A stretch of DNA of 64,000 nt, taken from positions 32,001 to 96,000 of IMG/VR virus record IMGVR_UViG_3300022602_000036; one strand, written 5' to 3'. A program made the position numbers and the translations under genes. This DNA is from a virus. Shown here piece after piece: positions 5,552-38,036 of the stretch. Each line of letters opens with the position of its first letter. The first letter of the stretch is position 1. The notes beneath the pieces were generated by a model, which was not told where the DNA came from, ran no database searches, and worked only from the letters and a program-made list of their open reading frames with translations.

Positions 5552-5752
5552 TTATGCGTAGGTATCTGGGTTAATTTTTGTTGCTTCTACTAGCTCGCCT
5601 TCGGCATTGTAGACTTTAACGGTTTGATCAACATCAACTTCAGGTTTTACATCTTTACGTGCAAAACTTAGAGCTTCTTTGATAGTTTCAAACTCATACT
5701 CTATTTGTTCTAGTACGCCTTTGATCCATCTGTTGATTTTAACTAAGCCCAT
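5552..5752 (-). CDS. Hypothetical protein, paralogue of 5755-5997
   Basis: Shares W..G.L, EF....AL.FA, Q..K.Y...G.LV and terminal TYA with its neighbour. Confidence 0.7.
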   Translation of the reverse strand: MGLVKINRWIKGVLEQIEYEFETIKEALSFARKDVKPEVDVDQTVKVYNAEGELVEATKINPDTYA

Positions 5753-5754
5753 GA

Positions 5755-5997
5755 TTAAGCGTAAGTTGAATCCTGACTAGATAACCCAACTGATTGTACT
5801 AGTGAACCGTCTTCGTCATCATATATCTTAATTACTTGTTCTGTTTCAACTTCGTAAATTGTTTTTTGATGATTTACTTCAGCTTGATTAGCAAATGTAA
5901 GAGCCTGTCCTAGATCTTCAAATTCATGATCTTGAACTGTTAAACGACCTCTTTGCCATTTGTGTACTTTAACGTGATGCTTATTGTGATGTGCCAT
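5755..5997 (-). CDS. Hypothetical protein with His-rich N-terminus
   Basis: AAGGA RBS; MAHHNKHH start; paralogue of 5552-5752. Confidence 0.7.
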   Translation of the reverse strand: MAHHNKHHVKVHKWQRGRLTVQDHEFEDLGQALTFANQAEVNHQKTIYEVETEQVIKIYDDEDGSLVQSVGLSSQDSTYA

Positions 5998-6002
5998 TTT
6001 TA

Positions 6003-7055
6003 TTATCCTTTAAAAATTTTTGCCCAAATCTTACGGGTGTTATCTGTGTATTTATTTAAATTTCTTTGATTCAATGCTACATTAACAGCAGCAAAGCGGT
6101 GTGTACGCAGTAGCGCATCAGCAATTTCGTCGCTTTCAGCTGGGCGAGCATTAAACCATCTAGTAGCCCAAGGAATTTCGTAACTGCCCACTACAGGCAC
6201 ACCTTGACTGATCAAGTCAGCTGACACAATATTAAATGTTTCACTGAAGTTACACTGTAGGCCAATGTCCATGGTTGAACAGATTTCTAAGAATCCTTCA
6301 CGTGGAGTCCACTCATGTCCAATTAGTTGATGCCCTTGGCCAGCCAGATGTTGAAATAGCCCACGTAGGTTATGCATCACAGGATCGCCCTTCATTTCAA
6401 TACGGCCCATGTTGATATGGAAACGCAGTTGTTTACCTGCGGTCTGAGCAAACTTAAGAGCTGCTACAGCCTGTACCAAATGATTCTTTAACGGGCGCAC
6501 TGCACCAAAACAGGCAATGTCTACCCAGTATTTGTTCTTGTCATATTTTTTCTGTTTCATTTCTTGCGGATAGAAATTAGGCATGTAGATGATACGGCGC
6601 TGAGTTTCTTCGTCAGTCCACCCCTGTTTGATCTGCAGATAAGTTCTAACTTCATCTAACATGCGAGGAGCATTGACACCAATAACAATATTTTTGAATG
6701 TGACATAGTCGCCAATCCAATCCATGGCCATACCTTCACCAGCCATAAATGGCATTTCACTGTGTAAGCGTATGATCCAAGTTACGTTAGGATGTAGTTT
6801 GGTTAGAATTTCAAACTTTTGCGGAACAACCCAAAGTGCTTCAACAATACAGTGTGTGGGCTTATGGCGTGTTACCAAGCGATCAATGCAGTTGTTGTCT
6901 ATAGCCACTTCCATAGCTGACTCAACTCCCATGTCGTTTAGCATTTGATCAACAAAGCTGGCACTGTTAAACAAGCCTGTGCTAAGGCCCTGCGGACTGT
7001 GTTTAACTGGGTTGAAATCCTCACGCCGCTTGAGGATAAAAAGTACCTTGCTCAT
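6003..7055 (-). CDS. Putative GT-B glycosyltransferase
   Basis: C-terminal FGAVRPLKN and SETFNIVSADLISQGVPVV resemble the GT4 E-x7-E/D region. Confidence 0.6.
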   Translation of the reverse strand: MSKVLFILKRREDFNPVKHSPQGLSTGLFNSASFVDQMLNDMGVESAMEVAIDNNCIDRLVTRHKPTHCIVEALWVVPQKFEILTKLHPNVTWIIRLHSEMPFMAGEGMAMDWIGDYVTFKNIVIGVNAPRMLDEVRTYLQIKQGWTDEETQRRIIYMPNFYPQEMKQKKYDKNKYWVDIACFGAVRPLKNHLVQAVAALKFAQTAGKQLRFHINMGRIEMKGDPVMHNLRGLFQHLAGQGHQLIGHEWTPREGFLEICSTMDIGLQCNFSETFNIVSADLISQGVPVVGSYEIPWATRWFNARPAESDEIADALLRTHRFAAVNVALNQRNLNKYTDNTRKIWAKIFKG

Positions 7056-7143
7056 TGAAAAACCTTTCTAATTGATAATATACAGCTATTTATATCTTAG
7101 ACGATTACGTGTAGATTACATTGATAATTCCTTATTATTTTTG

Positions 7144-7172
7144 TTGACTTTAAGATAAATCTGTTGTATAAT
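7144..7172 (+). promoter_or_regulatory. sigma70-type promoter
   Basis: TTGACT-N17-TATAAT. Confidence 0.8.
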
Positions 7173-7201
7173 AGTTTAAATACTAACGTTTGGAGAAATA
7201 C

Positions 7202-7450
7202 ATGGACAACAAAACCTACAGTAAAGACTTAGATATTCAAAAGATTGAAAACAATGTAGGGGGTAGCCGTTTTGAATTGATATTAATTGCAGCTACACGA
7301 GCCCGTGAAATATCTAATATACGCAATATTGCTAATAGAAATAATCCAGCGTTGAAGTATGATACTAAAATTACCACAGAAGCATTAAAAGAAATTGAAG
7401 ATGGTAAAATAGGCCGCGAATACTTAATGAAAGTAGTCAAAGCAAGATAA
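7202..7450 (+). CDS. rpoZ: RNA polymerase omega subunit-like protein
   Basis: SRFELILIAATRAREI ... TEALKEIEDGKI matches omega conserved regions; GGAG RBS before ATG 7202. Confidence 0.8.
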   Translation: MDNKTYSKDLDIQKIENNVGGSRFELILIAATRAREISNIRNIANRNNPALKYDTKITTEALKEIEDGKIGREYLMKVVKAR

Positions 7451-7471
7451 CTAATAAGCACAAGTTTCTGC

Positions 7472-7696
7472 ATGAAAACCCTGGCAGACCTAGCCGTTGG
7501 CCAAGTAGCAGTGATCAAAGCCTTAGCGTTTGATGATCTAGGTTACCATAAGCGACTATATGGTCTAGGACTGCGAGAGGGTAAAGAAATAAAAATTATT
7601 AGAAAGGGGTTGACAGGTAGCCCACTTCATGTTATAATAGGTACTACTGAATTAGCAATTCGTCAAAAAGAGGCGAAAAATATACATATATTTTAA
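7472..7696 (+). CDS. feoA: FeoA-family protein
   Basis: TLADLAVGQ...KRLYGLGLREG..IIRK..GSPL...LAIRQKEA. Confidence 0.85.
   Translation: MKTLADLAVGQVAVIKALAFDDLGYHKRLYGLGLREGKEIKIIRKGLTGSPLHVIIGTTELAIRQKEAKNIHIF
7610..7638 (+). promoter_or_regulatory. sigma70 consensus promoter inside feoA
   Basis: TTGACA-N17-TATAAT. Confidence 0.7.
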
Positions 7697-7733
7697 TTCG
7701 GTATAAATAAATTTATAAGAAATAAAAAAGAGG

Positions 7734-7762
7734 TTGACACAGTTTATATTAGACTGTATAAT
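7734..7762 (+). promoter_or_regulatory. sigma70 consensus promoter of the tRNA-array leader
   Basis: TTGACA-N17-TATAAT with A-rich upstream sequence. Confidence 0.9.
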
Positions 7763-7805
7763 AGTTTTTATAGTAACAAATTAATTAAAGGAAAGCGAAA
7801 GCAAA

Positions 7806-7958
7806 ATGTTTAACAACAAGCTACATCAATTTAGAGGATCGAAACAAGTGCAAGCACTCGTAACGATATCTTATTGGCTAGCGATTGAGACAACATTAGG
7901 CAATGATCGTGCACCGAATAGTATCGATGGGGTTCGAGAGGGATGGGATGGTTATTAA
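7806..7958 (+). CDS. Putative attenuator leader peptide (50 aa, MFNNKLHQFRGSKQVQALVTISYWLAIETTLGNDRAPNSIDGVREGWDGY)
   Basis: Short ORF between promoter and terminator, AAGGA upstream; its 3' end overlaps the predicted antiterminator arm. Confidence 0.7.
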   Translation: MFNNKLHQFRGSKQVQALVTISYWLAIETTLGNDRAPNSIDGVREGWDGY

Positions 7959-7985
7959 GTAAATAACAAAATCCAAAACTTTAAG

Positions 7986-8018
7986 AACCCTAGAACAGAA
8001 ATGTTACTAGGGTTTTTT
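7986..8018 (+). terminator. Intrinsic terminator (attenuator) upstream of the tRNA array
   Basis: AACCCTAG-AACA-gaaa-TGTT-a-CTAGGGTT followed by a T-tract. Confidence 0.85.
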
Positions 8019-8237
8019 GTTTTATGTGTCAGGGAAACGAGGTCCAAGCAAGGCACATTAAAGATTGTATGTTAAACGGGCGGGACTAGAGGATGGATTA
8101 CCCTTGTGTGGGTAAAAAAATTCTAGTTATAATAAAACACATTGGACGAATATACTTGCTGGGGTCGTATAATGCGGCGCCTTCAATACCAAACACCAGT
8201 GTGCTTTATTATACGCATTCGCAAGAGTGTGTTTAAA

Positions 8238-8311
8238 CTCAGTGTGGTGTAGAGATAACATGCGTGGTTTGGGACCATGTGTCGAAGGTTTGATTCCTTC
8301 CACTGAGACCA
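8238..8311 (+). tRNA. tRNA-Pro(TGG)
   Basis: Cloverleaf, CTCAGTG/CACTGAG acceptor, loop TT-TGG-GA, CCA. Confidence 0.9.
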
Positions 8312-8317
8312 TTTAGC

Positions 8318-8401
8318 GGGTGATGAGCAGCATTGGCGACTGCAGCAGACTGTAAATCTGTGTCCTCTGGAAACTAGGTTCGACTCCTAGATCACCCACC
8401 A
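8318..8401 (+). tRNA. tRNA-Tyr(GTA)
   Basis: GGGTGAT/ATCACCC acceptor, CT-GTA-AA, variable arm, CCA. Confidence 0.9.
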
Positions 8402-8407
8402 AGTTAT

Positions 8408-8502
8408 GTCGCAGTTCCAGTTACATTAATCTCTCAGTTCAAAGCTGTTAGTGTGCAAAGGACACGAGAAAGTCAACTTCTTCTGGGTAGACTGTGACGC
8501 CA
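8408..8502 (+). ncRNA. tRNA-like structured RNA with acceptor-like stem and CCA end, non-cloverleaf
   Basis: GTCGCAGT/ACTGTGAC stem + GCCA; internal hairpins; no canonical T-arm. Confidence 0.6.
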
Positions 8503-8509
8503 AAATTTA

Positions 8510-8583
8510 GGGTCGTTAATTCAATGGGAGAATAGCTGGCTTTTAACCAGTCTACGACGGATCGTAACCGTCACGACTCACCA
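8510..8583 (+). tRNA. tRNA-Lys(TTT)
   Basis: CT-TTT-AA loop, atypical T-loop ATCGTAA, CCA. Confidence 0.9.
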
Positions 8584-8630
8584 AGTATTTTATAGATAGA
8601 GCTAAATAATAGTAATAAGGAGCTCTACCT

Positions 8631-9041
8631 ATGAAGTATTTTAATTGTTTATGTTGCGGAAAAGAAAATATCATTAAAGGCTATAGTTATACAGGAAAAT
8701 ATTGTAATAACAAATGTCAAGCAACACATCGCACAGCTAAATGGTTTGAAGATAATAAATTATTGTTTGAACAAGGTTTACTTAAGCATAGATCAGCAAT
8801 TAAAAAGTTTGTTAAATTAAGAGATGGTGAAATGTGTTCTATTTGCGGACAATCGCCAGAATATAATAACAAGCCGTTAGTTATGATTATAGATCATATT
8901 GATGGTGACGCAAGTAATAATATGCCGGATAATTTTAGATTAGTGTGTCCAAATTGCGACTCGCAGTTAGATACATATAAAGCACGAAATATAGGAAATG
9001 GTCGTGCTACTAAAGGTATGAAATGGTATAGTAGTTTATAA
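8631..9041 (+). CDS. HNH homing endonuclease
   Basis: CSICG...DHIDGDASNNMPDNFRLVCPNC. Confidence 0.9.
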   Translation: MKYFNCLCCGKENIIKGYSYTGKYCNNKCQATHRTAKWFEDNKLLFEQGLLKHRSAIKKFVKLRDGEMCSICGQSPEYNNKPLVMIIDHIDGDASNNMPDNFRLVCPNCDSQLDTYKARNIGNGRATKGMKWYSSL

Positions 9042-9043
9042 AT

Positions 9044-9119
9044 GCGGTATTAGCTCAATCGGGAGAGCACGGCACTGTCACTGCCGAGGTAAGGGGATCG
9101 AAACCCCTATATCGCGCCA
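9044..9119 (+). tRNA. tRNA-Asp(GTC)
   Basis: CGGCA-CT-GTC-AC-TGCCG, G discriminator, CCA. Confidence 0.9.
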
Positions 9120-9127
9120 AATAATTG

Positions 9128-9156
9128 TTGACAGCATTGTCTGTTAGCTATATAAT
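9128..9156 (+). promoter_or_regulatory. sigma70 promoter internal to the tRNA array
   Basis: TTGACA-N17-TATAAT. Confidence 0.8.
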
Positions 9157-9172
9157 GTTTATTAGAGTCATT

Positions 9173-9248
9173 GCTCCCATCGTCTAGAGGCCTAGGACAC
9201 CCGCCTTTCACGCAGGTAACACGAGTTCGAATCTCGTTGGGAGTACCA
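9173..9248 (+). tRNA. tRNA-Glu(TTC)
   Basis: CT-TTC-AC loop, one mismatch in the anticodon stem, CCA. Confidence 0.85.
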
Positions 9249-9261
9249 GTTTTAAAGTTAC

Positions 9262-9336
9262 GGGCTGTTGGTATACTTGGGAACACACCTGCCTTGCACG
9301 CAGGAGTACGGGGTTCGACTCCCCGACGGTCCACCA
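9262..9336 (+). tRNA. tRNA-Ala(TGC)
   Basis: CCTGC-CT-TGC-AC-GCAGG, G3-U70, CCA. Confidence 0.9.
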
Positions 9337-9344
9337 AATTAATT

Positions 9345-9419
9345 GCGCGGTTAGCTCAGCGGGAGAGCAGGGCCCTTACAAGGCCAAGGTCGAAAGTTCA
9401 ATCCTTTCACTGCGCACCA
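9345..9419 (+). tRNA. tRNA-Val(TAC)
   Basis: CT-TAC-AA loop, cloverleaf, CCA. Confidence 0.9.
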
Positions 9420-9442
9420 AGTTAGTAGTAGTAAAGTTTTAT

Positions 9443-9518
9443 TCCGGTCAAGCAAACACGGTGTAGGCGGTGGACTGTTAATCCATGAAGGTTGGTTCGA
9501 TTCCAACGACCGGAGCCA
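9443..9518 (+). tRNA. tRNA-Asn(GTT)
   Basis: GTGGA-CT-GTT-AA-TCCAT, GCCA end. Confidence 0.9.
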
Positions 9519-9525
9519 TTTTTAT

Positions 9526-9599
9526 AGTCTGTTAGTTCAATGGGAGAACAGTCGACTGATAATCGACAAACACTGGATCGTAACCAGTACGGACTACCA
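9526..9599 (+). tRNA. tRNA-Ile(GAT)
   Basis: GTCGA-CT-GAT-AA-TCGAC, T-loop ATCGTAA, CCA. Confidence 0.9.
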
Positions 9600-9604
9600 A
9601 GTAT

Positions 9605-9790
9605 TCCAACCACATCGCGTTTAGGGTGAAGTAGGGCGTGCCAATAAAACCCTGTAAGATCAAAAATACCTACCAAGCAAGGAGGAATCACAGCGCAAGC
9701 TGAAGAACAATGTGGTGACTTGCTACCCGGGAGAAAGCTGTAACATTACGTATTCGAGGTTAGGAGAGTACAGCAAACCGCCCACTTATT
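9605..9790 (+). ncRNA. Putative pseudoknotted ncRNA of unknown class
   Basis: Several complementary helices with crossing pairings in a ~185-nt inter-tRNA spacer. Confidence 0.55.
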
Positions 9791-9792
9791 TT

Positions 9793-9882
9793 GGAAGCGT
9801 GGCAGAGCCTGGCTGATTGCACCTGTCTTGAAAACAGACAAGGGGAAACCCTTCGTGAGTTCGAATCTCACCGCTTCCGCCA
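9793..9882 (+). tRNA. tRNA-Ser(TGA)
   Basis: CT-TGA-AA, long variable arm, GCCA. Confidence 0.9.
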
Positions 9883-9893
9883 AATATTTTTAT

Positions 9894-9985
9894 CCTTCTG
9901 TAGTTCAATGGTAGAACGGCTCCCTTATAAGGAGTGAGTGCTAGATAAGCCGCTAATGGGGGTTCGAGTCCCTCCAGAAGGACCA
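9894..9985 (+). tRNA. tRNA with TAT anticodon (Ile, AUA-reading) and long variable arm
   Basis: GCTCC-CT-TAT-AA-GGAGT, ~22-nt variable region, ACCA. Confidence 0.85.
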
Positions 9986-9987
9986 AT

Positions 9988-10061
9988 GCTCTTATAGTTA
10001 AGTGGCATAACGCATCCATGGTAAGGATGTATTCCAAGTTCGATTCTTGGTGAGAGCACCA
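9988..10061 (+). tRNA. tRNA-Thr(GGT)
   Basis: CATCC-AT-GGT-AA-GGATG, CCA. Confidence 0.9.
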
Positions 10062-10073
10062 AAAAAGTTTAAT

Positions 10074-10147
10074 TGGCTCATGGTGTAGTGGTAGCACAAC
10101 AGGTTTTGATCCTGTTAGTCCTAGTTCGATTCTAGGTGGGCCTGCCA
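10074..10147 (+). tRNA. tRNA-Gln(TTG)
   Basis: ACAGG-TT-TTG-AT-CCTGT, GCCA. Confidence 0.9.
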
Positions 10148-10161
10148 AATAAATAAAGAAC

Positions 10162-10275
10162 AGTCCGGAGCATGCGAGTCCTACGATAAGTAGGAGAAAA
10201 CTCCACTTATAGCTGGAATTTACCAGTGAACCCTATGGACGCATAGGGCTACGGGCATCCTGGGGGACAACTCCA
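10162..10275 (+). ncRNA. Putative multi-hairpin ncRNA of unknown class
   Basis: TCCTAC/GTAGGA, CTGG/CCAG and CCCTATG/CATAGGG hairpins enclosed by ATGC/GCAT and GTCC/GGAC. Confidence 0.5.
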
Positions 10276-10331
10276 ACCTAATTAAAATGGTAGCACAGCA
10301 GTTTTGTATAAATAATATAGTGGAGATAAAA

Positions 10332-10934
10332 ATGTTCTATATTATATACAAGACTACAAATTTAATCGATAATAAAATTTATGTCGGATCGCACCAAACT
10401 AAAGAGTTGAATGACGATTACTTAGGGTCCGGAAAGTATCTTAAGCGTGCTATTTCTAAACACGGAAAGCAAAATTTTACTAAAGAGATTTTACATGTGT
10501 TTGACAATAAACAAGACATGTTTAATAAAGAACGCGAAATAGTAAATGAAGAATTTGTTAAGGATACAAATACATACAATTTCAAAATAGGCGGCTCGGG
10601 TGGTAATCCAGGCATTGTGGGTGCATTTTCTGGTAAAAAACATTCGCAAGAGTCGATTGAAAAAATAAGATTGTCTGCCCTTGCCCAAGGAACAACAGAT
10701 GAAAAAAGAAGAAAATGTTCTGTTAATAATTGGGCAAAACAAGACCCAGACGCATTTAGAAAACACGCATCACGCATAAACAAAGATATCCCTAAAACAG
10801 ATACACATAGAAATGCGCTAGCAAAGGCACAGCTAGGACGAAAGATGATGAACAATGGTACAGTATCTAGTTTTATTAAAGCTGATGATATAAATGAATA
10901 TTTAGAAAAAGGGTGGACACTAGGCCACCATTAA
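10332..10934 (+). CDS. GIY-YIG (Seg-like) homing endonuclease with NUMOD3 motif
   Basis: IIYKTTNLIDNKIYVG, YLGSG..LKRAI.KHG..NF, GKKHSQES; GGAG RBS before ATG 10332. Confidence 0.9.
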   Translation: MFYIIYKTTNLIDNKIYVGSHQTKELNDDYLGSGKYLKRAISKHGKQNFTKEILHVFDNKQDMFNKEREIVNEEFVKDTNTYNFKIGGSGGNPGIVGAFSGKKHSQESIEKIRLSALAQGTTDEKRRKCSVNNWAKQDPDAFRKHASRINKDIPKTDTHRNALAKAQLGRKMMNNGTVSSFIKADDINEYLEKGWTLGHH

Positions 10935-10942
10935 CAATCAAT

Positions 10943-11016
10943 TACCCCATAGTGTAACGGCAGCACGCGAAGCTCCAAACTTCTTAGTCGCGGTTCAAAT
11001 CCGTGTGGGGTAGCCA
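10943..11016 (+). tRNA. tRNA-Trp(CCA)
   Basis: CT-CCA-AA loop, TACCCCA/TGGGGTA acceptor, GCCA. Confidence 0.9.
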
Positions 11017-11023
11017 TTTTTAC

Positions 11024-11101
11024 GCAACGGTACCAGAGTGGCCTAATGGCGGGGACTGCAAATCCCTAAAGCCGCCGGTTCAAATCCGGCCCTGTGCTCC
11101 A
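11024..11101 (+). tRNA. tRNA-Cys(GCA)
   Basis: GGGGA-CT-GCA-AA-TCCCT, U discriminator, imperfect acceptor stem. Confidence 0.8.
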
Positions 11102-11123
11102 AGAATAAATGTAAATATATACT

Positions 11124-11699
11124 ATGTTAACAATGGATTTTATTGACGGCTCATATCCAGATTTCATTCATCGATTAGATGATTTTTTGGAATTGGTCCC
11201 ATCTGGGCATGCTAAATGTTCTAAGAATGATATACTATTTTTATATTCAATCATCTATTCTAAAAAACCAGAAAATGTATTAGAAATAGGCCGTAGTTAT
11301 GGCACATCAACTTTGACTATATGTGGTGCTTTAACGGACAATAATAAAGGTAAATTATATTCAATTGATGTGGAAAACTTATTGCCAAAAGATATAGCAA
11401 ATATAATTGATAAAAGAACTCAATTGATTACTAATTCAAGTGAATACCTATTAGATGAAATCAATGATGTTAAATTTGGTGTTACATTCATTGATGGCGA
11501 TCATTCATACGAGATGGCCAAAAATGATATTATTAAATCCATGACACTATCAGAAGATGAAGCAATCATACTTTGTCATGATTCAGACATGTTAGGAGTA
11601 CAACAGGCTATCAACGAAGTCTGTGGTATGTATCCAACTAGCTTATTAAATTGTGGAGTATTTGGAGAAAAGATCCAAATGCTCATAGTCCGTAAATAA
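11124..11699 (+). CDS. Class I SAM-dependent methyltransferase (Methyltransf_24-like)
   Basis: VLEIGRSYGTST, FIDGDHSYE, ILCHD. Confidence 0.85.
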   Translation: MLTMDFIDGSYPDFIHRLDDFLELVPSGHAKCSKNDILFLYSIIYSKKPENVLEIGRSYGTSTLTICGALTDNNKGKLYSIDVENLLPKDIANIIDKRTQLITNSSEYLLDEINDVKFGVTFIDGDHSYEMAKNDIIKSMTLSEDEAIILCHDSDMLGVQQAINEVCGMYPTSLLNCGVFGEKIQMLIVRK

Positions 11700-11707
11700 T
11701 CCAACAT

Positions 11708-11784
11708 AGCAATATAGCTCAGCTGGCCAGAGCAGATCCTTCATACGGATAAGGTCACTAGTTCGAATCTAGTTATTGCTACCA
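11708..11784 (+). tRNA. tRNA-Met(CAT)
   Basis: TT-CAT-AC loop, cloverleaf, CCA; Met versus Ile2 identity not certain. Confidence 0.8.
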
Positions 11785-11785
11785 T

Positions 11786-11863
11786 GCCTCCATAGCTCAT
11801 TTGGATTAGAGCATTTGGCTACGAACCAAAAGGTGGGGAGTTCGAATCTCTCTGGGGGCTCCA
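11786..11863 (+). tRNA. tRNA-Arg(ACG)
   Basis: TTTGG-CT-ACG-AA-CCAAA, CCA. Confidence 0.9.
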
Positions 11864-11871
11864 GTTTTAAT

Positions 11872-11945
11872 GCAGGATTAGTTTAATGGTAAAACGAAAC
11901 GTTGCCAACGTCTAGTCACGAGTTCGATTCTCGTATCCTGCTCCA
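11872..11945 (+). tRNA. tRNA-Gly(GCC)
   Basis: TT-GCC-AA loop, TCCA end. Confidence 0.9.
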
Positions 11946-11947
11946 AT

Positions 11948-12022
11948 GGTGTCTATAATGTAGCGGTAACATTCAGGATTGTGATTCCTGCATCACGGGT
12001 TCGAACCCCGTTAGACACCCCA
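11948..12022 (+). tRNA. tRNA-His(GTG)
   Basis: CAGGA-TT-GTG-AT-TCCTG, G-1:C73. Confidence 0.9.
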
Positions 12023-12023
12023 C

Positions 12024-12052
12024 TTGACATTTTGATTAAATGACTGTATAAT
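12024..12052 (+). promoter_or_regulatory. sigma70 promoter
   Basis: TTGACA-N17-TATAAT; ATG 6 nt downstream. Confidence 0.85.
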
Positions 12053-12058
12053 ACACAT

Positions 12059-12223
12059 ATGAAAAATAAAAATACATACACCAAGTTCCAAGAAGCAGAA
12101 GATGCTGAAACAGCCTATGCTATGGTATTATCTGGGCAGTGGACTGTTGAACGATTTGCTGAATGGCACGATCAGGTCAAACATATTGAATATATGTATG
12201 CCACAGCAGATGAGAGTTTCTGA
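12059..12223 (+). CDS. Hypothetical protein (54 aa, probably leaderless)
   Basis: ORF MKNKNTYTKFQEAE... at the predicted transcription start; abuts the next ORF. Confidence 0.6.
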   Translation: MKNKNTYTKFQEAEDAETAYAMVLSGQWTVERFAEWHDQVKHIEYMYATADESF

Positions 12224-12481
12224 GTGACTGAAGAACAACAATTAGCCTGGGATATATTAAGCACACCTGACAATGCGGACTTTAAAGAGTACCGCAGAAT
12301 GCACTATGCAACATGGCTAACTAAAGAACGCAAGGTATTACTAATATCTGATATGGAAACAGGTTATATTATTAACTGTATTAACATGCTAGAAGCATTA
12401 GGACAAGAAACTACTTTAGCCTACGCAGGCTTAATTGATGAACTAGGAAGGCGAGGGCATGAATATGAAAACCAAATTTGA
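12224..12481 (+). CDS. Hypothetical protein
   Basis: ORF track, operon packing. Confidence 0.6.
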   Translation: MTEEQQLAWDILSTPDNADFKEYRRMHYATWLTKERKVLLISDMETGYIINCINMLEALGQETTLAYAGLIDELGRRGHEYENQI

Positions 12482-12812
12482 TTGGAATGGTCTAAGTGAT
12501 TTACCTGATGTAAGTCAAGAAGCACTTAAGAACTATTTCTTATATGCTCTACCACCAGGTAGTTTCTTAACCAGTTTGTTAAGTTGCGATCCGTGGACCG
12601 ATGTTATTGCACGTGCAGACCATTGGAACAAAACACGCTTAAAAGAATATTCACTATGGCTACAGGACTTTGCTCCGCCAGGTAGTTGGGGTAGCCAAGA
12701 TATTGTTGCTGATTGGTTGCGTAAAGGTTCTGCTTACGAACAGTTCCAAAAGTCTATGACTTGGGAAATACTACAAGCAAATGAATATGAATCAAAAGAC
12801 TATGACTTCTAA
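12459..12812 (+). CDS. Hypothetical protein
   Basis: ORF track, operon packing. Confidence 0.7.
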   Translation: MNMKTKFDWNGLSDLPDVSQEALKNYFLYALPPGSFLTSLLSCDPWTDVIARADHWNKTRLKEYSLWLQDFAPPGSWGSQDIVADWLRKGSAYEQFQKSMTWEILQANEYESKDYDF

Positions 12813-12996
12813 GCAACAACCAAGTTGGGTTGAGACACGAGAAGCTCTTCGTACACATGTTGAGGAGCCTCCTGTGTTTGTAGGAGAAATGGGCGTCGCA
12901 GGAGTTATAGATGGTCTATTACCCAACGGTGAACCATATGGTTGGTATAAACGTCGTGGTACTAAAGATACCAAGTTCAAAGGCAGGAAAGTTTAA
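12802..12996 (+). CDS. Hypothetical protein
   Basis: ORF track; internal ATG chosen. Confidence 0.6.
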   Translation: MTSKQQPSWVETREALRTHVEEPPVFVGEMGVAGVIDGLLPNGEPYGWYKRRGTKDTKFKGRKV

Positions 12997-13001
12997 ACTG
13001 A

Positions 13002-13196
13002 ATGAATAAGATTAATTTTAGTGTTAATGAGTTTCCAAAATTGTGTAAAGAATTTTATAGGCAAGACTATATTAATTGGATAACATTTTTGTCTGACCTA
13101 GGATATAAGTTTACCTGGCAACATTACGCCAGTAAACGAAAATATGTAGAAATGGACGAAGATGAATTTACTTTATTCTTGTTAAGGTGGGCATAA
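13002..13196 (+). CDS. Hypothetical protein
   Basis: ORF track; ends FLLRWA. Confidence 0.6.
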   Translation: MNKINFSVNEFPKLCKEFYRQDYINWITFLSDLGYKFTWQHYASKRKYVEMDEDEFTLFLLRWA

Positions 13197-13579
13197 TGGA
13201 CTTTACAATTAACCCAGAGTATATGACTAGTGTGACTATTCATAAAGAATGGAATTCTTATACGAATAATGGTCGTGTGCCAACCAATGATGAACTGCTA
13301 TTAATCCTACAAGGTAAAGGTAAGTGTAGTAGCACAAGTTCAGAAGACCACCCAGAGTTTGCCCGTTTGCGTGAGCAGTTAGGCGAGCTAGGTTACATTC
13401 ATATCCAACGTGGTCAGTGGAATGGCGATAGAGTTCTAAAGCCGTTCAAACTTAACGGCAGAAAGTTCAAAGAGGGTGATCGGTTTAGCTGTGGTGCGGC
13501 AATGGGTACGCATCTTGCTGTCCGTGCTAAACACCCAGAATATTATAAGGATGAGTACGATGATGAAACCGTGGATTGA
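13196..13579 (+). CDS. Hypothetical protein
   Basis: TAATG overlap with the upstream gene. Confidence 0.65.
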   Translation: MDFTINPEYMTSVTIHKEWNSYTNNGRVPTNDELLLILQGKGKCSSTSSEDHPEFARLREQLGELGYIHIQRGQWNGDRVLKPFKLNGRKFKEGDRFSCGAAMGTHLAVRAKHPEYYKDEYDDETVD

Positions 13580-13979
13580 AAATATTAGTCTTGATGATGT
13601 TCGCAAGGGATATCACTACGACCCAGGTTTCAACAGTATGCTGATCCAGATTGTAGATCCTGGTGTAGAGTTTCCAACGCCTAAACATCAGTTCCGTAAG
13701 ACCTATCAGTTCTACTTCCTAGACGTAGAAGACAATGAGCCTGACGGTTGTTTGTATGATGCAGCAATTACCAATGAAGATGCTAAAGGTATTGCTGAAG
13801 CATTACGTGAAGCATGGAATGAACATATGAATGTAGTGGTACACTGCCATATGGGTGTAGCACGCAGTGGTGCAGTAGCAGAAGTTGGCGTTATGATTGG
13901 GTTTAGAGATACAGAGAAATTTCGTATTCCTAACTTGATGGTCAAACACAAGCTAATGCACTATTTAGGTTTAGTTTAA
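13560..13979 (+). CDS. Dual-specificity/tyrosine phosphatase-like protein
   Basis: VVHCHMGVARS (HCx5R) motif. Confidence 0.8.
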   Translation: MMKPWIENISLDDVRKGYHYDPGFNSMLIQIVDPGVEFPTPKHQFRKTYQFYFLDVEDNEPDGCLYDAAITNEDAKGIAEALREAWNEHMNVVVHCHMGVARSGAVAEVGVMIGFRDTEKFRIPNLMVKHKLMHYLGLV

Positions 13980-13981
13980 AT

Positions 13982-14057
13982 GCTACCTTAGCTCATCTGG
14001 TAGAGCACCGGCCTGAAGAGTCGGGTGTGCTTGGTTCAAGTCCAAGAGGTAGCACCA
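13982..14057 (+). tRNA. tRNA-Phe(GAA)
   Basis: CCGGC-CT-GAA-GA-GTCGG, CCA. Confidence 0.9.
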
Positions 14058-14077
14058 ACGTTAAATAAAGGTATAAC

Positions 14078-14548
14078 ATGAAAAAATTAGACATCAATTA
14101 TGTCCGTGATTACATAGAATCACAGAGCGCAGAAACCAAAGTCTACATTGGTGGAGACAGCCGTCGTTTCCGTAAAAATGGCAAATGGTATGCTGAATAC
14201 ACCTTGGCAGTGGTTGTACACCTTAACGGTAAAAACGGCTGTAAGATCTTTGGTGAAAGCTCAGTTGAAGTTGACTATGATCAAAAGCGTAGTCGTCCAG
14301 CTATGCGTCTAATGAACGAAGTATATAAGATTTCAGAACTATACCTTAAACTGCACGAAGTATTAGAAGATCGTGAAGTTGAAGTTCACTTAGACATTAA
14401 CCCTGATGAAATGCATGGGTCAAGCTGTGTGGTGCAACAAGCAATTGGTTATATCCGTGGTACCTGTAATGTCATACCATTGGTTAAACCAAATGCGTTT
14501 GCGGCTAGCTATGCGGCAGACCGTCTACATCACGTAGTAAATGGTTGA
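14078..14548 (+). CDS. RNase H-like YkuK-family protein
   Basis: VYIGGDS, RLMNEV, EVHLDIN, KPNAFAASYAAD. Confidence 0.8.
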   Translation: MKKLDINYVRDYIESQSAETKVYIGGDSRRFRKNGKWYAEYTLAVVVHLNGKNGCKIFGESSVEVDYDQKRSRPAMRLMNEVYKISELYLKLHEVLEDREVEVHLDINPDEMHGSSCVVQQAIGYIRGTCNVIPLVKPNAFAASYAADRLHHVVNG

Positions 14549-14573
14549 CACAGCGGCCAAATGAGCGTATAAT
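14545..14573 (+). promoter_or_regulatory. sigma70 promoter for tRNA sub-cluster
   Basis: TTGACA-N17-TATAAT. Confidence 0.8.
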
Positions 14574-14592
14574 ATATGCTTGTTTGGTTAAT

Positions 14593-14666
14593 GCGGGATT
14601 AGTTTAATGGCAGAACAAGAGATTTCCAATCTTTTGGTGAGGGTTCGATTCCCTTATCCCGCTCCA
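14593..14666 (+). tRNA. tRNA-Gly(TCC)
   Basis: TT-TCC-AA loop, TCCA. Confidence 0.9.
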
Positions 14667-14673
14667 TTTTACA

Positions 14674-14750
14674 GGGCCTATAGCTTAATTGGTTGAAGCA
14701 ACAAACTCATAATTTGGAGATTCCTGGTTCAAGTCCAGGTGGGCCCACCA
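14674..14750 (+). tRNA. tRNA(CAT), probably Ile2 (lysidine type)
   Basis: CT-CAT-AA loop; GGGCCTA acceptor resembles Ile tRNAs. Confidence 0.75.
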
Positions 14751-14752
14751 AA

Positions 14753-14827
14753 CCGGTGTTAGTTAAATGGATATAACAGGGGATTTCTACTCCCTAGTTG
14801 GGGGTTCGATTCCCTCACGCCGGACCA
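14753..14827 (+). tRNA. tRNA-Arg(TCT)
   Basis: GGGGA-TT-TCT-AC-TCCCT, CCA. Confidence 0.85.
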
Positions 14828-14834
14828 TAAGTAT

Positions 14835-14863
14835 TTGACATAGTCACTAAAAGGCAGTATAAT
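14835..14863 (+). promoter_or_regulatory. sigma70 promoter
   Basis: TTGACA-N17-TATAAT directly abutting ATG 14864, so it would start inside that ORF and feed the downstream RNAs. Confidence 0.7.
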
Positions 14864-15103
14864 ATGAAATATACGCAAGAAGAGATTATTGAACTGGCCA
14901 AAGAAGTAGAGCTCAGTGATATGATTGATTGGGAAGGCCTGCCTTTAGAAAAAGATAGAATCTATCAAATCGTTGGCAGTCAAGCCTATGAAGTGTATGA
15001 AGAATTTACCAATAGTGCTGATGGTGAAGCAATACTGTTAGCCACAGTAACTAAGTTATTAGTAGAGAATTTTGTTCTTAACCTTAGGGTTAATAACGTT
15101 TAA
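14864..15103 (+). CDS. Hypothetical protein
   Basis: ORF track. Confidence 0.65.
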   Translation: MKYTQEEIIELAKEVELSDMIDWEGLPLEKDRIYQIVGSQAYEVYEEFTNSADGEAILLATVTKLLVENFVLNLRVNNV

Positions 15104-15109
15104 GTTGAT

Positions 15110-15184
15110 AGCGGTGGTGGAGCAATTGGCAGCTCGCCAGCCTCATAAGCTGGAGACCAGGTTCGAGTCCTGCGACCGCAACCA
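15110..15184 (+). tRNA. tRNA-Met(CAT), initiator-like
   Basis: CCAGC-CT-CAT-AA-GCTGG, A11-U24, unpaired first position; irregular acceptor/T stems. Confidence 0.75.
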
Positions 15185-15187
15185 ACA

Positions 15188-15395
15188 CTAGGTTACACTT
15201 TTCCTTAAAGAAAGTGGGTCATTGGTGATACCATAACGCCAGGGTGCGCACGATAAAGTTTAGCGACTACCTCTAAGTCCCATTGCCGGGAGCCTTGAAA
15301 GTATCGTGGGTGTTTTGCTGTTTTTAACCACAAAGCAAACAGACGGACAGAGTAACCGCTCAGTTCTGGGCCAGGTAGTGCTGGTAGCAGGACAC
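15188..15395 (+). ncRNA. Putative ~200-nt structured ncRNA of unknown class
   Basis: GGTTAC/GTAACC, CACTTTT/GAAAGTG, CACGATA/TATCGTG, TTTGCT/AGCAAA and other helices. Confidence 0.55.
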
Positions 15396-15398
15396 AAT

Positions 15399-15474
15399 GC
15401 ATCTATCGTCTAGAGGCCTAGGACACCGCCCTTTCACGGCGGGAACACGAGTTCGAATCTCGTTAGATGTACCA
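15399..15474 (+). tRNA. tRNA-Glu(TTC), second copy
   Basis: CCGCC-CT-TTC-AC-GGCGG, CCA. Confidence 0.9.
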
Positions 15475-15545
15475 ATTAATTTTGGTAATTACAATAAATG
15501 ACATTTTTCAATGTGTTTAGCTAAATAAACATAAGGAGATATAAA

Positions 15546-15998
15546 ATGTTATTAATAGAAGAGTATATTAAACAATCTAAAGAAGCAAGGCAACAACACT
15601 TAGTTTTAACGGAGTCTTGCATAGAAAGAGGTGGCCCACAAAAAGGTGGATTATCTAGTTATTGTAAAGGGCTAATGGCCCATGTATTAGATACGAGTAT
15701 CCCAAGTGGACATAAAATACATATATGCCATGCCTGTAACAATGAAAAGTGTAGTAACCCAAAACATTTATATTGGGGCACTGCACAAGAAAATAGAATA
15801 GATCAGGGCAAAGATAATAGTCCTTGGGATAGAATGGTTGCCAAATATGGGTATGAAGAAGCCTGTAAAATGAATGGTAAAAATAAAAAAGGTAATACCA
15901 ATGGGTCAGGTAATAAAGGTAAACCTAAATCAGAAGAACATAAAAGAAAAATTGCCCTTAATCGTAAGGGTGGTAGAAAGAAAAAAGAAACAGTTTAA
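15546..15998 (+). CDS. HNH (His-Cys) homing endonuclease-like protein with NUMOD3 tail
   Basis: HICHACNNEKCSNPKHLYWGT..EN; GKPKSEEHKRKI. Confidence 0.8.
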   Translation: MLLIEEYIKQSKEARQQHLVLTESCIERGGPQKGGLSSYCKGLMAHVLDTSIPSGHKIHICHACNNEKCSNPKHLYWGTAQENRIDQGKDNSPWDRMVAKYGYEEACKMNGKNKKGNTNGSGNKGKPKSEEHKRKIALNRKGGRKKKETV

Positions 15999-16003
15999 AT
16001 ATT

Positions 16004-16088
16004 GCCCCGATGGTGGAATTGGCAGACACGCTTGTCTTAGAAGCAAGTACCGAAAGGTGTGAGAGTTCAAGTCTCTCTTGGGGCACCA
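16004..16088 (+). tRNA. tRNA-Leu(TAG)
   Basis: CT-TAG-AA loop, variable arm, CCA. Confidence 0.9.
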
Positions 16089-16095
16089 TTAAATT

Positions 16096-16170
16096 GCTGG
16101 ATTAGCTCAGTGGTAGAGCAACCGCCTTGTAAGCGGTAGGTCGTCAGTTCAATCCCGACATCCAGCACCA
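16096..16170 (+). tRNA. tRNA-Thr(TGT)
   Basis: ACCGC-CT-TGT-AA-GCGGT, CCA. Confidence 0.9.
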
Positions 16171-16176
16171 AGAATT

Positions 16177-16270
16177 GGAGAGCTGGCCGAGTGGTCGAAG
16201 GCACTTCCCTGCTAAGGAAGCATACGGGCTTAAACCTGTATCGAGGGTTCGAATCCCTCGCTCTCCGCCA
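16177..16270 (+). tRNA. tRNA-Ser(GCT)
   Basis: CT-GCT-AA loop, long variable arm, GCCA. Confidence 0.9.
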
Positions 16271-16284
16271 ATATAAATATTAAT

Positions 16285-16497
16285 ATGAATCCAACGACAT
16301 CATTTCTAGTAGTACTACTAATCACAGGCTGTGCTGTCCAGCCTACTCCCGCAAAAAATAATAAGCAAGTTGAAACAACACCAAATAAACCAGCGTACAC
16401 ATTGTACGTACCACCAGAAGAAATATGGCCAGAAGATTATCAATCACCCCCAAAAGTCTGTGCTAGCCCATTTAGAGGAAGTATATTAGAAAGATGA
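16285..16497 (+). CDS. Small putative lipoprotein
   Basis: Lipobox LITGC; TATAAATA 5 nt upstream. Confidence 0.6.
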   Translation: MNPTTSFLVVLLITGCAVQPTPAKNNKQVETTPNKPAYTLYVPPEEIWPEDYQSPPKVCASPFRGSILER

Positions 16498-18518
16498 AAA
16501 ACAAACTTAAGAAAATCTTAGTCAGTCCATGGACTGCTCTCATTACTCTAGCTCTTATTGTAGCTGTAGTGTTTCAAGGACCTACATTTGTAGAAAGTGT
16601 TAGGCTCCGATACTTTGACACACTTATTACCAATCAGAAGCCTACTCAAAATAATATCTATACTGTAAACATAGATGAAGCTACCATAGACCGTTATGGT
16701 CAATGGCCATTTAAGCGTGACATCTATGCTAATCTAATTGATCAAATATACGCCCACAATGCTGGCCTAGTTGTTTGGGACGTATTAATGCCAGAAAAGG
16801 ATCGCCAAGGTGGCGATGCAACACTAGCCACAGTGTTAAGAACACAGGCTAATGTTATTCTTACTAACATGCCCGCACAGACCAGCAAGAATATTCCACG
16901 CAAACCAGGTAGTGCTGTAATTGGTGCAGACTATTTAGATACTATCATTAACTATCCAGGCATTATTGCCAACATTCCAGAATTAGAAAATAATGCCATT
17001 GGTGTTGGTATTGCTAACACTATGCCAGAGATTGATGGTGTTAATCGTCGCTTGCCATTGTTTGTGGGCTATAATGGTGGCTTATATCCCAGCGTTCCTT
17101 TAGAAGTACTGCGTGTTATTAGTAATGATGACACATTCCAAGTTAAGCTAAATGAGAATGGCGTTGAGAAAATGCGTGTGCCTAGCTTCCGTCCTATTAG
17201 TACAGACAGCCTAGGTCGTATCTGGGTAGACTGGAGTCAACAGAGTATTCCTGTATCAGCAGTTAACCTACCTAAAGACTTTAAGAAAGGTATTGTTATT
17301 GTAGGTACCAGTGCCGCAGGTATTGGTAATCCAGTAGCAACATCAAAAGGCAGTGTTTGGCCACAAGACATGCAGGCCGCTGTAGTTGCTACGCTGGCTA
17401 ACAATGTAAATATTGAACGTCCTGATTGGGCTCCTGGTGCTGAACTATTAGCACTTGTAGTTATCTCACTTATTATCCTAATATTATCACGTTGGGTATA
17501 TGTTGGCCTAGGTGTAGGTGTTGTATTAACTGCTAGTTTAATTCCAGCAAGCATGTATGTGTTTGCGCACTACAAGTTCTTAATAGATGCTATTGTGCCT
17601 ACAGCAGGTGTAGTTCTTGTTATGCTACACGCTTATGGTGTTAAGTTTGTTAGTGAATTCTTACAGAAACAACAGATCAAGAAACAGTTTGGCAGCTATG
17701 TTAATCCTACTATAGTAGAACGCTTGCAAAAGAATCCAGAGCTGATCAAACTAGGTGGTGAGCGTAAAGAACTATCAATTGTCATGACAGACCTGCGTGG
17801 GTTTACTACCCTAGGCGAATCGTTTGGTGATGATGTAGAAGGACTTACACAGATCATGAACGACTACATGACAGCACTGAGTATTCCTGTGCTTAAGAAT
17901 GACGGTACACTGATCAAGTTCATTGGTGATGCCAGCCTGCACGTTCATGGTGCTCCATTGGATGATGCTAACCATGCCAAGACTGCGGTACGTACAGCAC
18001 TAGAAATGATTGATGCCATTGCTGATTTCAACAAGGAACTAACAGCCAAAGGTCGTCCACCAGTGGGCATGGGTGCTGGTGTTAACACAGGTGAAACTTT
18101 AATTGGTAACATTGGTGCTAAAAGTAAGTTTGGCTATGATGTCTTAGGTGATAGTGTCAGCACTGCGGCACGTTTAGAAGGACAAACTAAGGCCTATGGT
18201 GTATTACTAATCATTGGACCTAAGACTGCTGAGTATTGTAAAGATGACTTCCCTGTGGTATGGTTAGACAACATTGCTGTTAAAGGCAAAACCATCGGCT
18301 TAGATATCTATGCTGTGGGTCATACAGTCGCATACAAACACGAAGAATATAAGAAAGAATATCTACGTGGCAATTGGGTTGCCGCACTTAAATGGGCACG
18401 TGAACTAGAAGCTGATCCAACTGTAGAAATTAAAGAATACTATCACAAGATGATTGAGCGTCTTGAAGAGGGAGTTCCAGCTAACTGGGACGGCACTTAT
18501 CACGCTACGAGCAAATAA
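16494..18518 (+). CDS. CHASE2-domain class III adenylate/guanylate cyclase
   Basis: CHASE2 (VNIDE..YGQWPF.R, DGVNRR), TM helices, cyclase core TDLRGFT, KFIGDA, GDSVSTAARLEG. Confidence 0.92.
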   Translation: MKNKLKKILVSPWTALITLALIVAVVFQGPTFVESVRLRYFDTLITNQKPTQNNIYTVNIDEATIDRYGQWPFKRDIYANLIDQIYAHNAGLVVWDVLMPEKDRQGGDATLATVLRTQANVILTNMPAQTSKNIPRKPGSAVIGADYLDTIINYPGIIANIPELENNAIGVGIANTMPEIDGVNRRLPLFVGYNGGLYPSVPLEVLRVISNDDTFQVKLNENGVEKMRVPSFRPISTDSLGRIWVDWSQQSIPVSAVNLPKDFKKGIVIVGTSAAGIGNPVATSKGSVWPQDMQAAVVATLANNVNIERPDWAPGAELLALVVISLIILILSRWVYVGLGVGVVLTASLIPASMYVFAHYKFLIDAIVPTAGVVLVMLHAYGVKFVSEFLQKQQIKKQFGSYVNPTIVERLQKNPELIKLGGERKELSIVMTDLRGFTTLGESFGDDVEGLTQIMNDYMTALSIPVLKNDGTLIKFIGDASLHVHGAPLDDANHAKTAVRTALEMIDAIADFNKELTAKGRPPVGMGAGVNTGETLIGNIGAKSKFGYDVLGDSVSTAARLEGQTKAYGVLLIIGPKTAEYCKDDFPVVWLDNIAVKGKTIGLDIYAVGHTVAYKHEEYKKEYLRGNWVAALKWARELEADPTVEIKEYYHKMIERLEEGVPANWDGTYHATSK

Positions 18519-37269: not shown

Positions 37270-37587
37270 ATGTCTAGAACACGTAGACGTAAGCGTGGCG
37301 ACCACACTGATCTAGCTTGGCAAACTAGAGAAATGATCAAAGTCCCAGGCAGATTAATTTGGGTGCCAATGGACCCAAAAACCAAGCAGTATAAACGAGT
37401 AGTAAACAAGTATCACAGTGATGCAGGCACACATAAGTTTAACAACTGTCCACAAGGATGGTGGGTTAACATGGTAATGCAAAGACCACATCGCCGTGAT
37501 GCTAAAAGAAAAATCCAAAAATGGTTGTTGGATCCAGAGTATGAAGTTATACTAAATGCTAAGGAACCACTTCCATATTGGGATTAA
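37270..37587 (+). CDS. Basic hypothetical protein
   Basis: MSRTRRRKRG...; GAGGAG RBS. Confidence 0.7.
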   Translation: MSRTRRRKRGDHTDLAWQTREMIKVPGRLIWVPMDPKTKQYKRVVNKYHSDAGTHKFNNCPQGWWVNMVMQRPHRRDAKRKIQKWLLDPEYEVILNAKEPLPYWD

Positions 37588-37589
37588 AG

Positions 37590-37900
37590 AATTGTTGTAT
37601 GAAGCGAGTCCAAAAACGGACAAGACACGGGTTCGACTCCCGTCGCCTCCACCAAAGCATTTTTGAAAGAGAGTTTTTCGTTGGGGGTGCCATGGTATCG
37701 ATTGACGGCTTAGTAGGCAAGTGGACAACACAGTAGGCGATGACTGTAAATCAAGCAAAATCCGTAAATGCAAAAGCATCTACACTTGGTACTGTAAAAG
37801 TATCTATGGGCCGCGGTTTCCGCTTTGCTCGTGGTACAGAAGCAGTAGCTGCCTAAGAAACAGCAACCACGGGGCAGTTATGCCTTGTTACCCAAAATAA
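37590..37900 (+). ncRNA. ssrA: Circularly permuted (two-piece) tmRNA
   Basis: T-arm + CGCCTCC-ACCA (ends 37654), spacer, then GGGGGTG 5' strand (37683) giving G3-U70; tag frame 37770-37856 AKASTLGTVKVSMGRGFRFARGTEAVAA*; outer boundaries approximate. Confidence 0.9.
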
Positions 37901-37902
37901 CC

Positions 37903-37922
37903 AAACCCGCTTCGGCGGGTTT
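37903..37922 (+). terminator. Intrinsic terminator after tmRNA
   Basis: AAACCCGC-ttcg-GCGGGTTT. Confidence 0.8.
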
Positions 37923-38036
37923 GCTACCTCTAAAAAGAGGTTGACAACAATACCAAATGATACTATAATAGTAACTAGTATGTCGTAGTTGGTTCTACGC
38001 ATACGTTAATTCAACTTTAGGACAAAGGAGAAATAT

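Follow-up and report, generated by a model that had tools for sequence, protein, structure and literature searches.

The window analyzed here, a stretch of 64,000 nucleotides, is part of a 149-kb viral contig of the IMG/VR collection, with an estimated completeness of 42% and a G+C content of 39.5%. The locus under study comprises a promoter, a 50-codon open reading frame (ORF), a terminator, a structured RNA of about 210 nt and a series of tRNA genes, in this order. Directly upstream are encoded a phage RNA polymerase omega-like protein (7190-7447; Pfam RNA_pol_Rpb6, E 1e-9) and a FeoA-domain protein (7472-7693; E 1e-17). The features on which the analysis is based are the following.

7610..7638, + strand: P1, a second perfect sigma70-type promoter with a TG extension (12/12 consensus positions)
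7734..7762, + strand: P2, the leader promoter, TTGACA-17-TATAAT (12/12 matches to the sigma70 consensus)
7789..7795, + strand: Shine-Dalgarno-like AGGAAAG, 13 nt before the ATG, a long spacing and a weak signal
7806..7958, + strand: leader ORF of 50 codons, from ATG to the stop codon TAA (7956-7958), kept in 37/37 relatives
7875..7916, + strand: invariant core and predicted hairpin H1 (TGGC..GCGATT / GATCGT..ACCG) within the ORF, from the RNAalifold consensus
7929..7991, + strand: predicted antiterminator hairpin, GGGGTTC (7929-7935) paired with GAACCCT (7985-7991), from the minimum-energy fold
7986..8023, + strand: intrinsic terminator with a 13-nt loop and a T6-G-T4 tract, with compensatory changes at 3 stem pairs
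8024..8237, + strand: conserved structured RNA without a promoter of its own, with covarying stems in 26 distinct contigs
8238..8583, + strand: first tRNA genes, Pro(UGG), Tyr(GUA) and Lys(UUU), called by ARAGORN

The perfect sigma70 promoter that the original prediction had placed at 7734-7762 is present at these coordinates with all 12 positions matched. P1 sits within the FeoA-like ORF, and a second promoter is found 70-130 nt upstream of the leader promoter in many relatives of the locus. All relatives for which upstream sequence is available have a near-consensus promoter at about -130 nt from the leader core motif. Perfect TTGACA-17-TATAAT promoters are distributed unevenly over the 149-kb contig, with 14 on the + strand and 1 on the - strand, and six of these 14 fall in the tRNA region (10 kb; 7610-14863), where shuffled sequences rarely give any.

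Relatives were sought in several collections. Among cultured phages, near and distant blastn searches and a tblastn search of 50,697 phage records with the leader revealed nothing relevant; the sole match, Ralstonia phage RsoM2USA, covered a tRNA only and was discarded as a relative. An 18-mer scan of bacterial genomes (596 Gb) returned 11 matches, all of them due to chance and without leader context. The leader peptide led to two IMG/VR contigs, an 18-mer from the conserved downstream RNA to 23 loci, and a 22-mer leader pattern to 31 viral and 30 metagenome loci. A scan with GGAAACGAGGTCCA was mostly non-specific and contributed three divergent loci, L038, L064 and L092. Removal of duplicates and of two chance matches (L022 and L152, excluded as relatives) left 34 distinct leader regions identified by DNA motifs (alignment A2), which together with the three divergent ones make up a set of 37 distinct relatives from viral and metagenome contigs. 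Because L038, L064 and L092 were found solely through the downstream RNA, they were not picked on the basis of their leader sequence.

The layout is kept in all 37 sequences, which share ancestry, so that counts of 37 overstate their independence: each has a promoter, an ORF of 41-50 codons, an antiterminator, a terminator and, where the flanks suffice, the structured RNA without its own promoter and then tRNA genes on the same strand. The original prediction had looked to related phages for a conserved ORF and alternative pairing; the 37 relatives keep both, and they display in-frame indels and compensatory changes as well. The carriers are a family of uncultured large phages.

The leader ORF starts 44 nt past the -10 hexamer of P2. 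A recount confirmed its composition as first described, namely 50 codons of which 36 are distinct, encoding 19 amino acids, with Cys missing. The translation signals are modest. AAAGGA is conserved in the 5' region of the relatives, and AGGA lies 13 nt from the ATG in most of them; in L002, a 5-nt deletion shortens the Shine-Dalgarno spacing to 7 nt. In L038 (oriented 5634-5827) and L064 (9589-9775) the ATG follows the -10 hexamer by 7 nt, and the leader ORFs of these two are predicted to be leaderless on the mRNA.

Selection acts on the reading frame in a manner that sets it apart from its surroundings. All seven indel patterns within the ORF are multiples of three (lengths 3, 3, 3, 3, 9, 6 and 6), against only 3 of 30 in the flanks (5'UTR and post-stop region), a contrast with a hypergeometric probability of about 1e-5 (hand calculation). 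Nonsense changes are absent from at least 126 codon-state changes (P ~1e-3, given that a random change in one of these codons makes a stop in about 5% of cases). The pN/pS ratio over the ORF is 1.00 when the invariant core is excluded, and the peptides of L038 and L064, with 15-30% identity to the other leaders, have the same length and the same end position. These comparative data argue for a reading frame under selection that encodes, the core aside, a peptide that is not. The leader peptide matches no Pfam family, and its homologues amount to only 11 tiny hypothetical proteins among 5.8 billion proteins. Neither purifying selection on amino acids nor membership of a family, as expected for a functional small protein gene, was thus found; the conserved frame, the pN/pS of 1.00 and the lack of a Pfam family together point to a regulatory leader ORF and not to a functional small protein. 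On the same sequence evidence, the ORF is presumably translated in vivo.

The intrinsic terminator, claimed beforehand at 7986-8018, was located there by its stem and T-tract, and it is conserved with compensatory pairs. Its 5' arm is AACCCTAG (7986-7993) and its 3' arm CTAGGGTT (8007-8014), and the T-tract runs over 8013-8018 and continues, after a G, with TTTT. The terminator hairpins of the relatives have energies of -10 to -17 kcal/mol.

A hairpin that competes with this terminator had also been proposed. It is the minimum-energy fold of 7900-8025, including the inner helices GGAT/ATCC and GTTATT/AATAAC, while the centroid structure of the same segment is the terminator (z = -3.5 with respect to shuffles). 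Since shuffled upstream sequence (mononucleotide shuffles) pairs at least 7 of the 8 terminator-arm bases in 4-18% of trials, the hairpin of a single window is suggestive only. The comparison of the relatives is more informative. When the nascent RNA is folded up to the terminator loop, the antiterminator is the minimum-energy structure in 37/37 sequences, at -15 to -28 kcal/mol. Its base consists of GGG(G) paired with ACCC(U) of the terminator 5' arm, and the two structures share 5-8 nt of this arm in each of the 37, which makes them mutually exclusive. The helix occurs in at least four variants, each of which keeps its self-complementarity.

Variant A: GGGGTTC / GAACCCT, the window type
Variant B: GGGGATCTTAGTTA / TAACTAAGAACCCT, in most relatives
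Variant C: AGGGTTTAAGT / ACTTAAACCCT, in the L007 and L019 group
Variant D: GGGTCC / GGACCC, in L147 and L153 and, independently, in L092 and L005
Variant E: CCAGGG / CCCTGG or GGGG / CCCC, in L038 and L064

Counted from the CCC anchor, position -2 is a U-A pair in most sequences and a C-G pair in L147/L153 and L092/L005, position -3 is C-G or U-A, and position +3 is G-U, A-U or G-C; one inner pair of the antiterminator passes from G-C to G-U to A-U. The GGG of variant C is read in another codon phase (GAG GGT), which implies conservation of the RNA and not of a glycine. The pairs were counted per sequence from the individual folds, as MAFFT sets the helix variants out of register; RNAalifold applied to the plain alignment recovers the terminator, plus H1 within the ORF. 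The compensatory pattern across the relatives leads us to regard the antiterminator as a real, if computationally defined, structure.

We further analyzed the balance between the two structures with a folding model in which the state energies were taken from the best fold with either the terminator 3' arm or the antiterminator 5' partner blocked. The energy of the terminator state minus that of the antiterminator state is -0.05 ± 1.67 kcal/mol over the 37 sequences, and the two RNA states are thus energetically balanced in this model. The stop codon lies within the antiterminator 5' half in 37/37, at a distance from the 5'-most paired base of 11-16 nt in most sequences and of 25-29 nt in those of the window's type. 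With a ribosome-sized block at the stop codon, the minimum-energy fold is the complete terminator in 35/37 sequences, compared with 13/37 when unblocked, whereas a block of equal size at the Trp codon leaves the antiterminator able to form in all 37. According to the model, the ORF is positioned such that the location of the ribosome would select the RNA structure.

The geometry of the window differs in one respect from the one foreseen. A ribosome at the stop codon had been expected to cover GGGGTTC, and this does not hold for the window, in which the stop (7956-7958) is 21-27 nt downstream of that segment; what a terminating ribosome covers here is the antiterminator's inner half. Among the relatives, most have the stop codon inside the antiterminator arm itself. 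With the block at the stop, the outer helix is still allowed by the simple folding model in 16/37 sequences, the variant of the window included, where the helix that could persist around a stop-bound ribosome comprises 7 bp. A conserved anti-antiterminator pairing of the 2:3 type was sought by eye and in the folds, and none was conserved.

The genes that follow strengthen the case for a conditional terminator. The structured RNA begins right after the T-tract and is the first product dependent on read-through. No promoter-like site is found on the + strand of the window between 7762 and 8905, and no consensus promoter occurs from the terminator to the first tRNA in the relatives. A strong promoter and a good terminator that precede promoterless genes for stable RNAs make sense only if the terminator is conditional.

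The same data bear on a plainer explanation, which would view the locus as an ordinary early gene of small size that has a promoter and a terminator of its own, the hairpin as a structure of the mRNA 3' end, and the tRNAs as transcribed by leakage or from other promoters. Promoter, ORF and terminator would indeed form a complete small transcription unit, and gene callers annotated the leader ORF as a hypothetical protein in a few metagenomes. We consider this explanation highly improbable in view of the pN/pS of 1.0 with no protein conservation outside a core that is invariant as RNA too, the lack of protein family matches, the isoenergetic states, the overlap of hairpin and terminator arm that compensatory changes have preserved, and the absence of a separate promoter for the covarying RNA and the first tRNAs downstream.

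The reading that we favor, with a probability of roughly 0.7, is that of a ribosome-mediated (leader-peptide) transcription attenuator placed ahead of the structured RNA, which has no promoter, and of the first tRNA genes. An attenuator of this type before tRNA genes was the central proposal of the original prediction, and it gains support from the conserved ORF, the compensatory pairing and the in-frame indels. Transcription would start at the consensus sigma70 promoter, and the antiterminator would form first in the nascent RNA, its base sequestering 5-8 nt of the terminator 5' arm. As the structure that forms first also holds this arm, the predicted default without a ribosome is read-through. 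A ribosome that keeps pace with the RNA polymerase would melt or occupy the antiterminator 5' half, so that the terminator could form and transcription would stop at ~8018-8023. If the ribosome is absent, late or stalled within about the first 37 codons, the antiterminator would stay intact, with consequent read-through into the RNA and the tRNAs. The net effect would be that slow translation raises the output of phage tRNA and so puts translational capacity under negative feedback. The sign of this response and the nature of what slows the ribosome are aspects that we infer from the model.

The core of the leader, invariant at the nucleotide level, encodes SYW(L/S)AIE ... NDRxP. It consists of a 22-nt segment, TCT TAT TGG TCA GCG ATT GAG (in the window, CTA replaces TCA), plus AAT GAT CGY, and shows zero synonymous change across 34 sequences, while the neighboring codons have a pS of 0.2. 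The core segments coincide with the arms of H1, in which no compensatory change is seen, only G-C to G-U. The two halves of the core are separated by a variable number of codons, from 1 to 6. The Tyr-Trp-Ser stretch (TATTGGTCA) is retained even in L038 and L064, which have no evident H1. One Pro codon, kept in 37/37 leaders at a distance of 0-15 nt from the antiterminator, varies synonymously (CCG/CCA/CCT), a sign of selection at the amino-acid level. The core, or H1, may act as a pause hairpin for RNA polymerase, as an arrest motif of the nascent peptide or as a binding site. The attenuator model does not account for the invariance of the core, which could be the binding site of another factor.

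If such a factor, a phage or host protein or an RNA, were to bind the core or H1 and to operate the switch, translation would be incidental. The 22-nt segment, invariant as nucleotides and arranged like a hairpin, and the weak Shine-Dalgarno signal would be accommodated by this scenario, but it leaves unexplained the selection on the frame, seen in indels confined to in-frame lengths, in the lack of nonsense changes and in the common length and stop position of unrelated peptides. H1, moreover, has no overlap with the antiterminator that would give binding an obvious route to the switch, it is not evident in L038 and L064, and the region has no Rfam match, T-box included. We therefore hold a factor-dependent switch to be improbable; it and the plain small gene are both weaker explanations, which sit badly with the conserved frame and with the compensatory overlap.

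Closer to the favored reading, the attenuator may be the same and respond to a specific cue, either through an arrest or pause module in the core (SYWSAIE...NDRxP) or through the sensing of prolyl-tRNA at the Pro codon. The core is invariant while the other parts of the peptide drift at a pN/pS of 1.0, its Tyr-Trp-Ser persists in the two most divergent leaders, L038 and L064, and the Pro is universal among the 37 with synonymous variation; in most relatives, moreover, the downstream tRNA series opens with Pro(UGG). Pro is the end point of many arrest peptides, and Pro-tRNA is sensed by the mgtL/mgtP leaders. Against these points, a core without any synonymous change fits a constraint at the RNA level at least as well as one on the peptide, the variable spacings between the core halves and between Pro and antiterminator are awkward for a fixed arrest geometry, and the leader has no run of any one codon. 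On balance, a specific cue appears rather unlikely.

For the ribosome-mediated attenuator, the breadth of its response is a separate question. The leader had been portrayed as a general sensor by virtue of its codon diversity. That it was selected as such is not borne out, since its codon and amino-acid diversity is about that of the neutral expectation (pN/pS 1.0). All 20 amino acids occur in 25 of 32 distinct leader peptides (single-sequence P 0.01-0.04); in a coverage test conditioned on shared ancestry, however, the combined P is 0.09 with random nucleotides as the null and 0.007 with the phage proteome as the null. Selection for coverage of all 20 amino acids was rejected as evidence, as the excess is weak once ancestry is conditioned on. 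The single Cys occurs at nine different alignment columns, as expected under the random-nucleotide null. The mean ln RSCU of the leader is -0.10, compared with 0.18 ± 0.09 in phage genes; this enrichment of rare codons is real, but it is explained by the absence of codon selection and was likewise set aside. A random-like leader, too, would sense broadly; this would be a consequence of its composition and is not evidence of selection.

A wider interpretation, which we put forward tentatively and at somewhat less than even odds, is that of a phage translation homeostat, in which the speed of ribosomes on the mixed-codon leader reports the pool of charged tRNAs, and the element releases phage tRNAs and the structured RNA in proportion. 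This pool may fall through the decay of host tRNAs in infection, through starvation or through anticodon nucleases.

The nearest known counterpart is the whiB7 uORF of mycobacteria, in which efficient translation leads to termination, whereas stalling at any point produces an antiterminator with read-through. Many defects in amino acids, tRNAs, synthetases and ribosomes elicit its response, and in M. smegmatis the uORF contains every amino acid but Cys (bioRxiv 10.1101/2023.06.02.543512). Both are long uORFs of mixed composition before an intrinsic terminator, and the leader of the window likewise lacks only Cys. By contrast, whiB7 is host-encoded (Actinobacteria), has an Ala-rich uORF, and gates the mRNA of a transcription factor with positive feedback, whereas the present element is phage-encoded, shares no sequence similarity with it, gates RNA genes and has a 22-nt invariant core that finds no counterpart in whiB7.

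The trp, his, leu, thr, pheA and ilv leaders resemble the element in having a promoter-proximal ORF and mutually exclusive hairpins between which the ribosome position decides. The enterobacterial leader attenuators have 14-32 codons with runs of regulatory codons and a 1:2 / 2:3 / 3:4 layout, and terminate when there is no translation. The present element, unlike these, is a two-state switch for which read-through is predicted when there is no translation; a run of regulatory codons, the hallmark of the trp/his type, is lacking from its leader. In the vmlR, bmrCD and msr/mef leaders and the toiL uORF of topAI, short uORFs sense translation stress and relieve termination, with toiL acting through Rho; these antibiotic-responsive leaders control resistance or toxin genes, and none is known to be phage-borne or to precede tRNA genes.

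T-boxes also couple the status of tRNA to the choice between terminator and antiterminator. They bind uncharged tRNA directly, have no leader ORF, and contain a conserved T-box sequence and a specifier loop. A T-box riboswitch (RF00230) was discarded as a candidate, with no Rfam match at E values up to 10 on 7765-8240 and up to 1 on 7000-17000. In pyrBI and pyrE, as here, termination in the leader is decided by the proximity of ribosome and RNA polymerase. There, the ribosome reads into the terminator and thereby prevents it; the sign is opposite to that of the present element, whose ORF ends 27 nt or more ahead of the terminator arm. Mechanisms of this kind are known from whiB7, the trp/his leaders and the antibiotic-sensing uORFs, and what is new is the viral carrier, the cargo of tRNAs and structured RNA, and the invariant core. 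In full-text searches, we found no report of attenuation or of a leader peptide ahead of the tRNA genes of a phage.

The tRNA arrays of phages are commonly regarded as constitutive cargo that serves to offset codon-usage mismatch, loss of host tRNAs or anticodon-nuclease defense. A conserved attenuator implies that at least one phage lineage gauges translational capacity and tunes its tRNA output, which would add a regulatory layer to the contest of phage and host over the translation machinery. Leader-peptide attenuation, hitherto associated with amino-acid operons, resistance genes and whiB7, would extend to RNA genes and to viruses. The homeostat, if true, would represent the first known feedback control of virus-encoded tRNAs, and possibly a sensor of host defenses that target tRNA. 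The consensus sigma70 promoter and the plain intrinsic terminator should allow the element to be tested in E. coli despite the lack of cultured phages.

The reach of the attenuator over the tRNA array appears to be limited. The window contains 28 tRNA genes between 8238 and 16270 (ARAGORN), and both this array and the perfect internal promoters at 9128, 12024, 14545 and 14835 were found as announced. Induction of the entire 28-tRNA set had been suggested as well; it does not stand, since these four promoters feed most of the array independently. From the promoter map, direct gating would concern only the ~210-nt RNA and tRNA-Pro/Tyr/Lys(/Asp), which precede the perfect promoter at 9128. No strong + strand terminators are predicted further along the array, so that read-through would also add to the transcription of the remaining genes. 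Wherever the downstream sequence of a relative is long enough, tRNA genes come after the element, in most cases beginning with Pro(UGG).

The structured RNA itself spans ~210-260 nt among its carriers, which include L038, L064, L092 and L147. It is composed of covarying long stems, a variable insertion domain and GNRA loops, with conserved single-stranded GGGCGG and GGAUG segments. Neither the leader nor this RNA matches a family in Rfam. In some relatives, the terminator and the structured RNA are separated by an inserted ORF of 40-60 codons that has a strong AAGGAG ribosome-binding site (L019, on the - strand, L020, L023, L024 and L009; L173, L038 and L064). The inserted ORFs are of two sequence types, and the versions of L173, L038 and L064 look mutually related. 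In these phages, as their gene order suggests, the attenuator would also gate a protein.

Other genes within or beyond the array were noted in passing. An HNH endonuclease ORF (8631-9038; Pfam HNH_3) lies in the tRNA array between tRNA-Lys and tRNA-Asp. A tRNA-Ile with the anticodon TAT (9894-9985) has a length of 92 nt, which implies a long variable arm. A tmRNA gene call at 37562-37947 (ARAGORN, asterisk-flagged) has the tag peptide AKASTLGTVKVSMGRGFRFARGTEAVAA.
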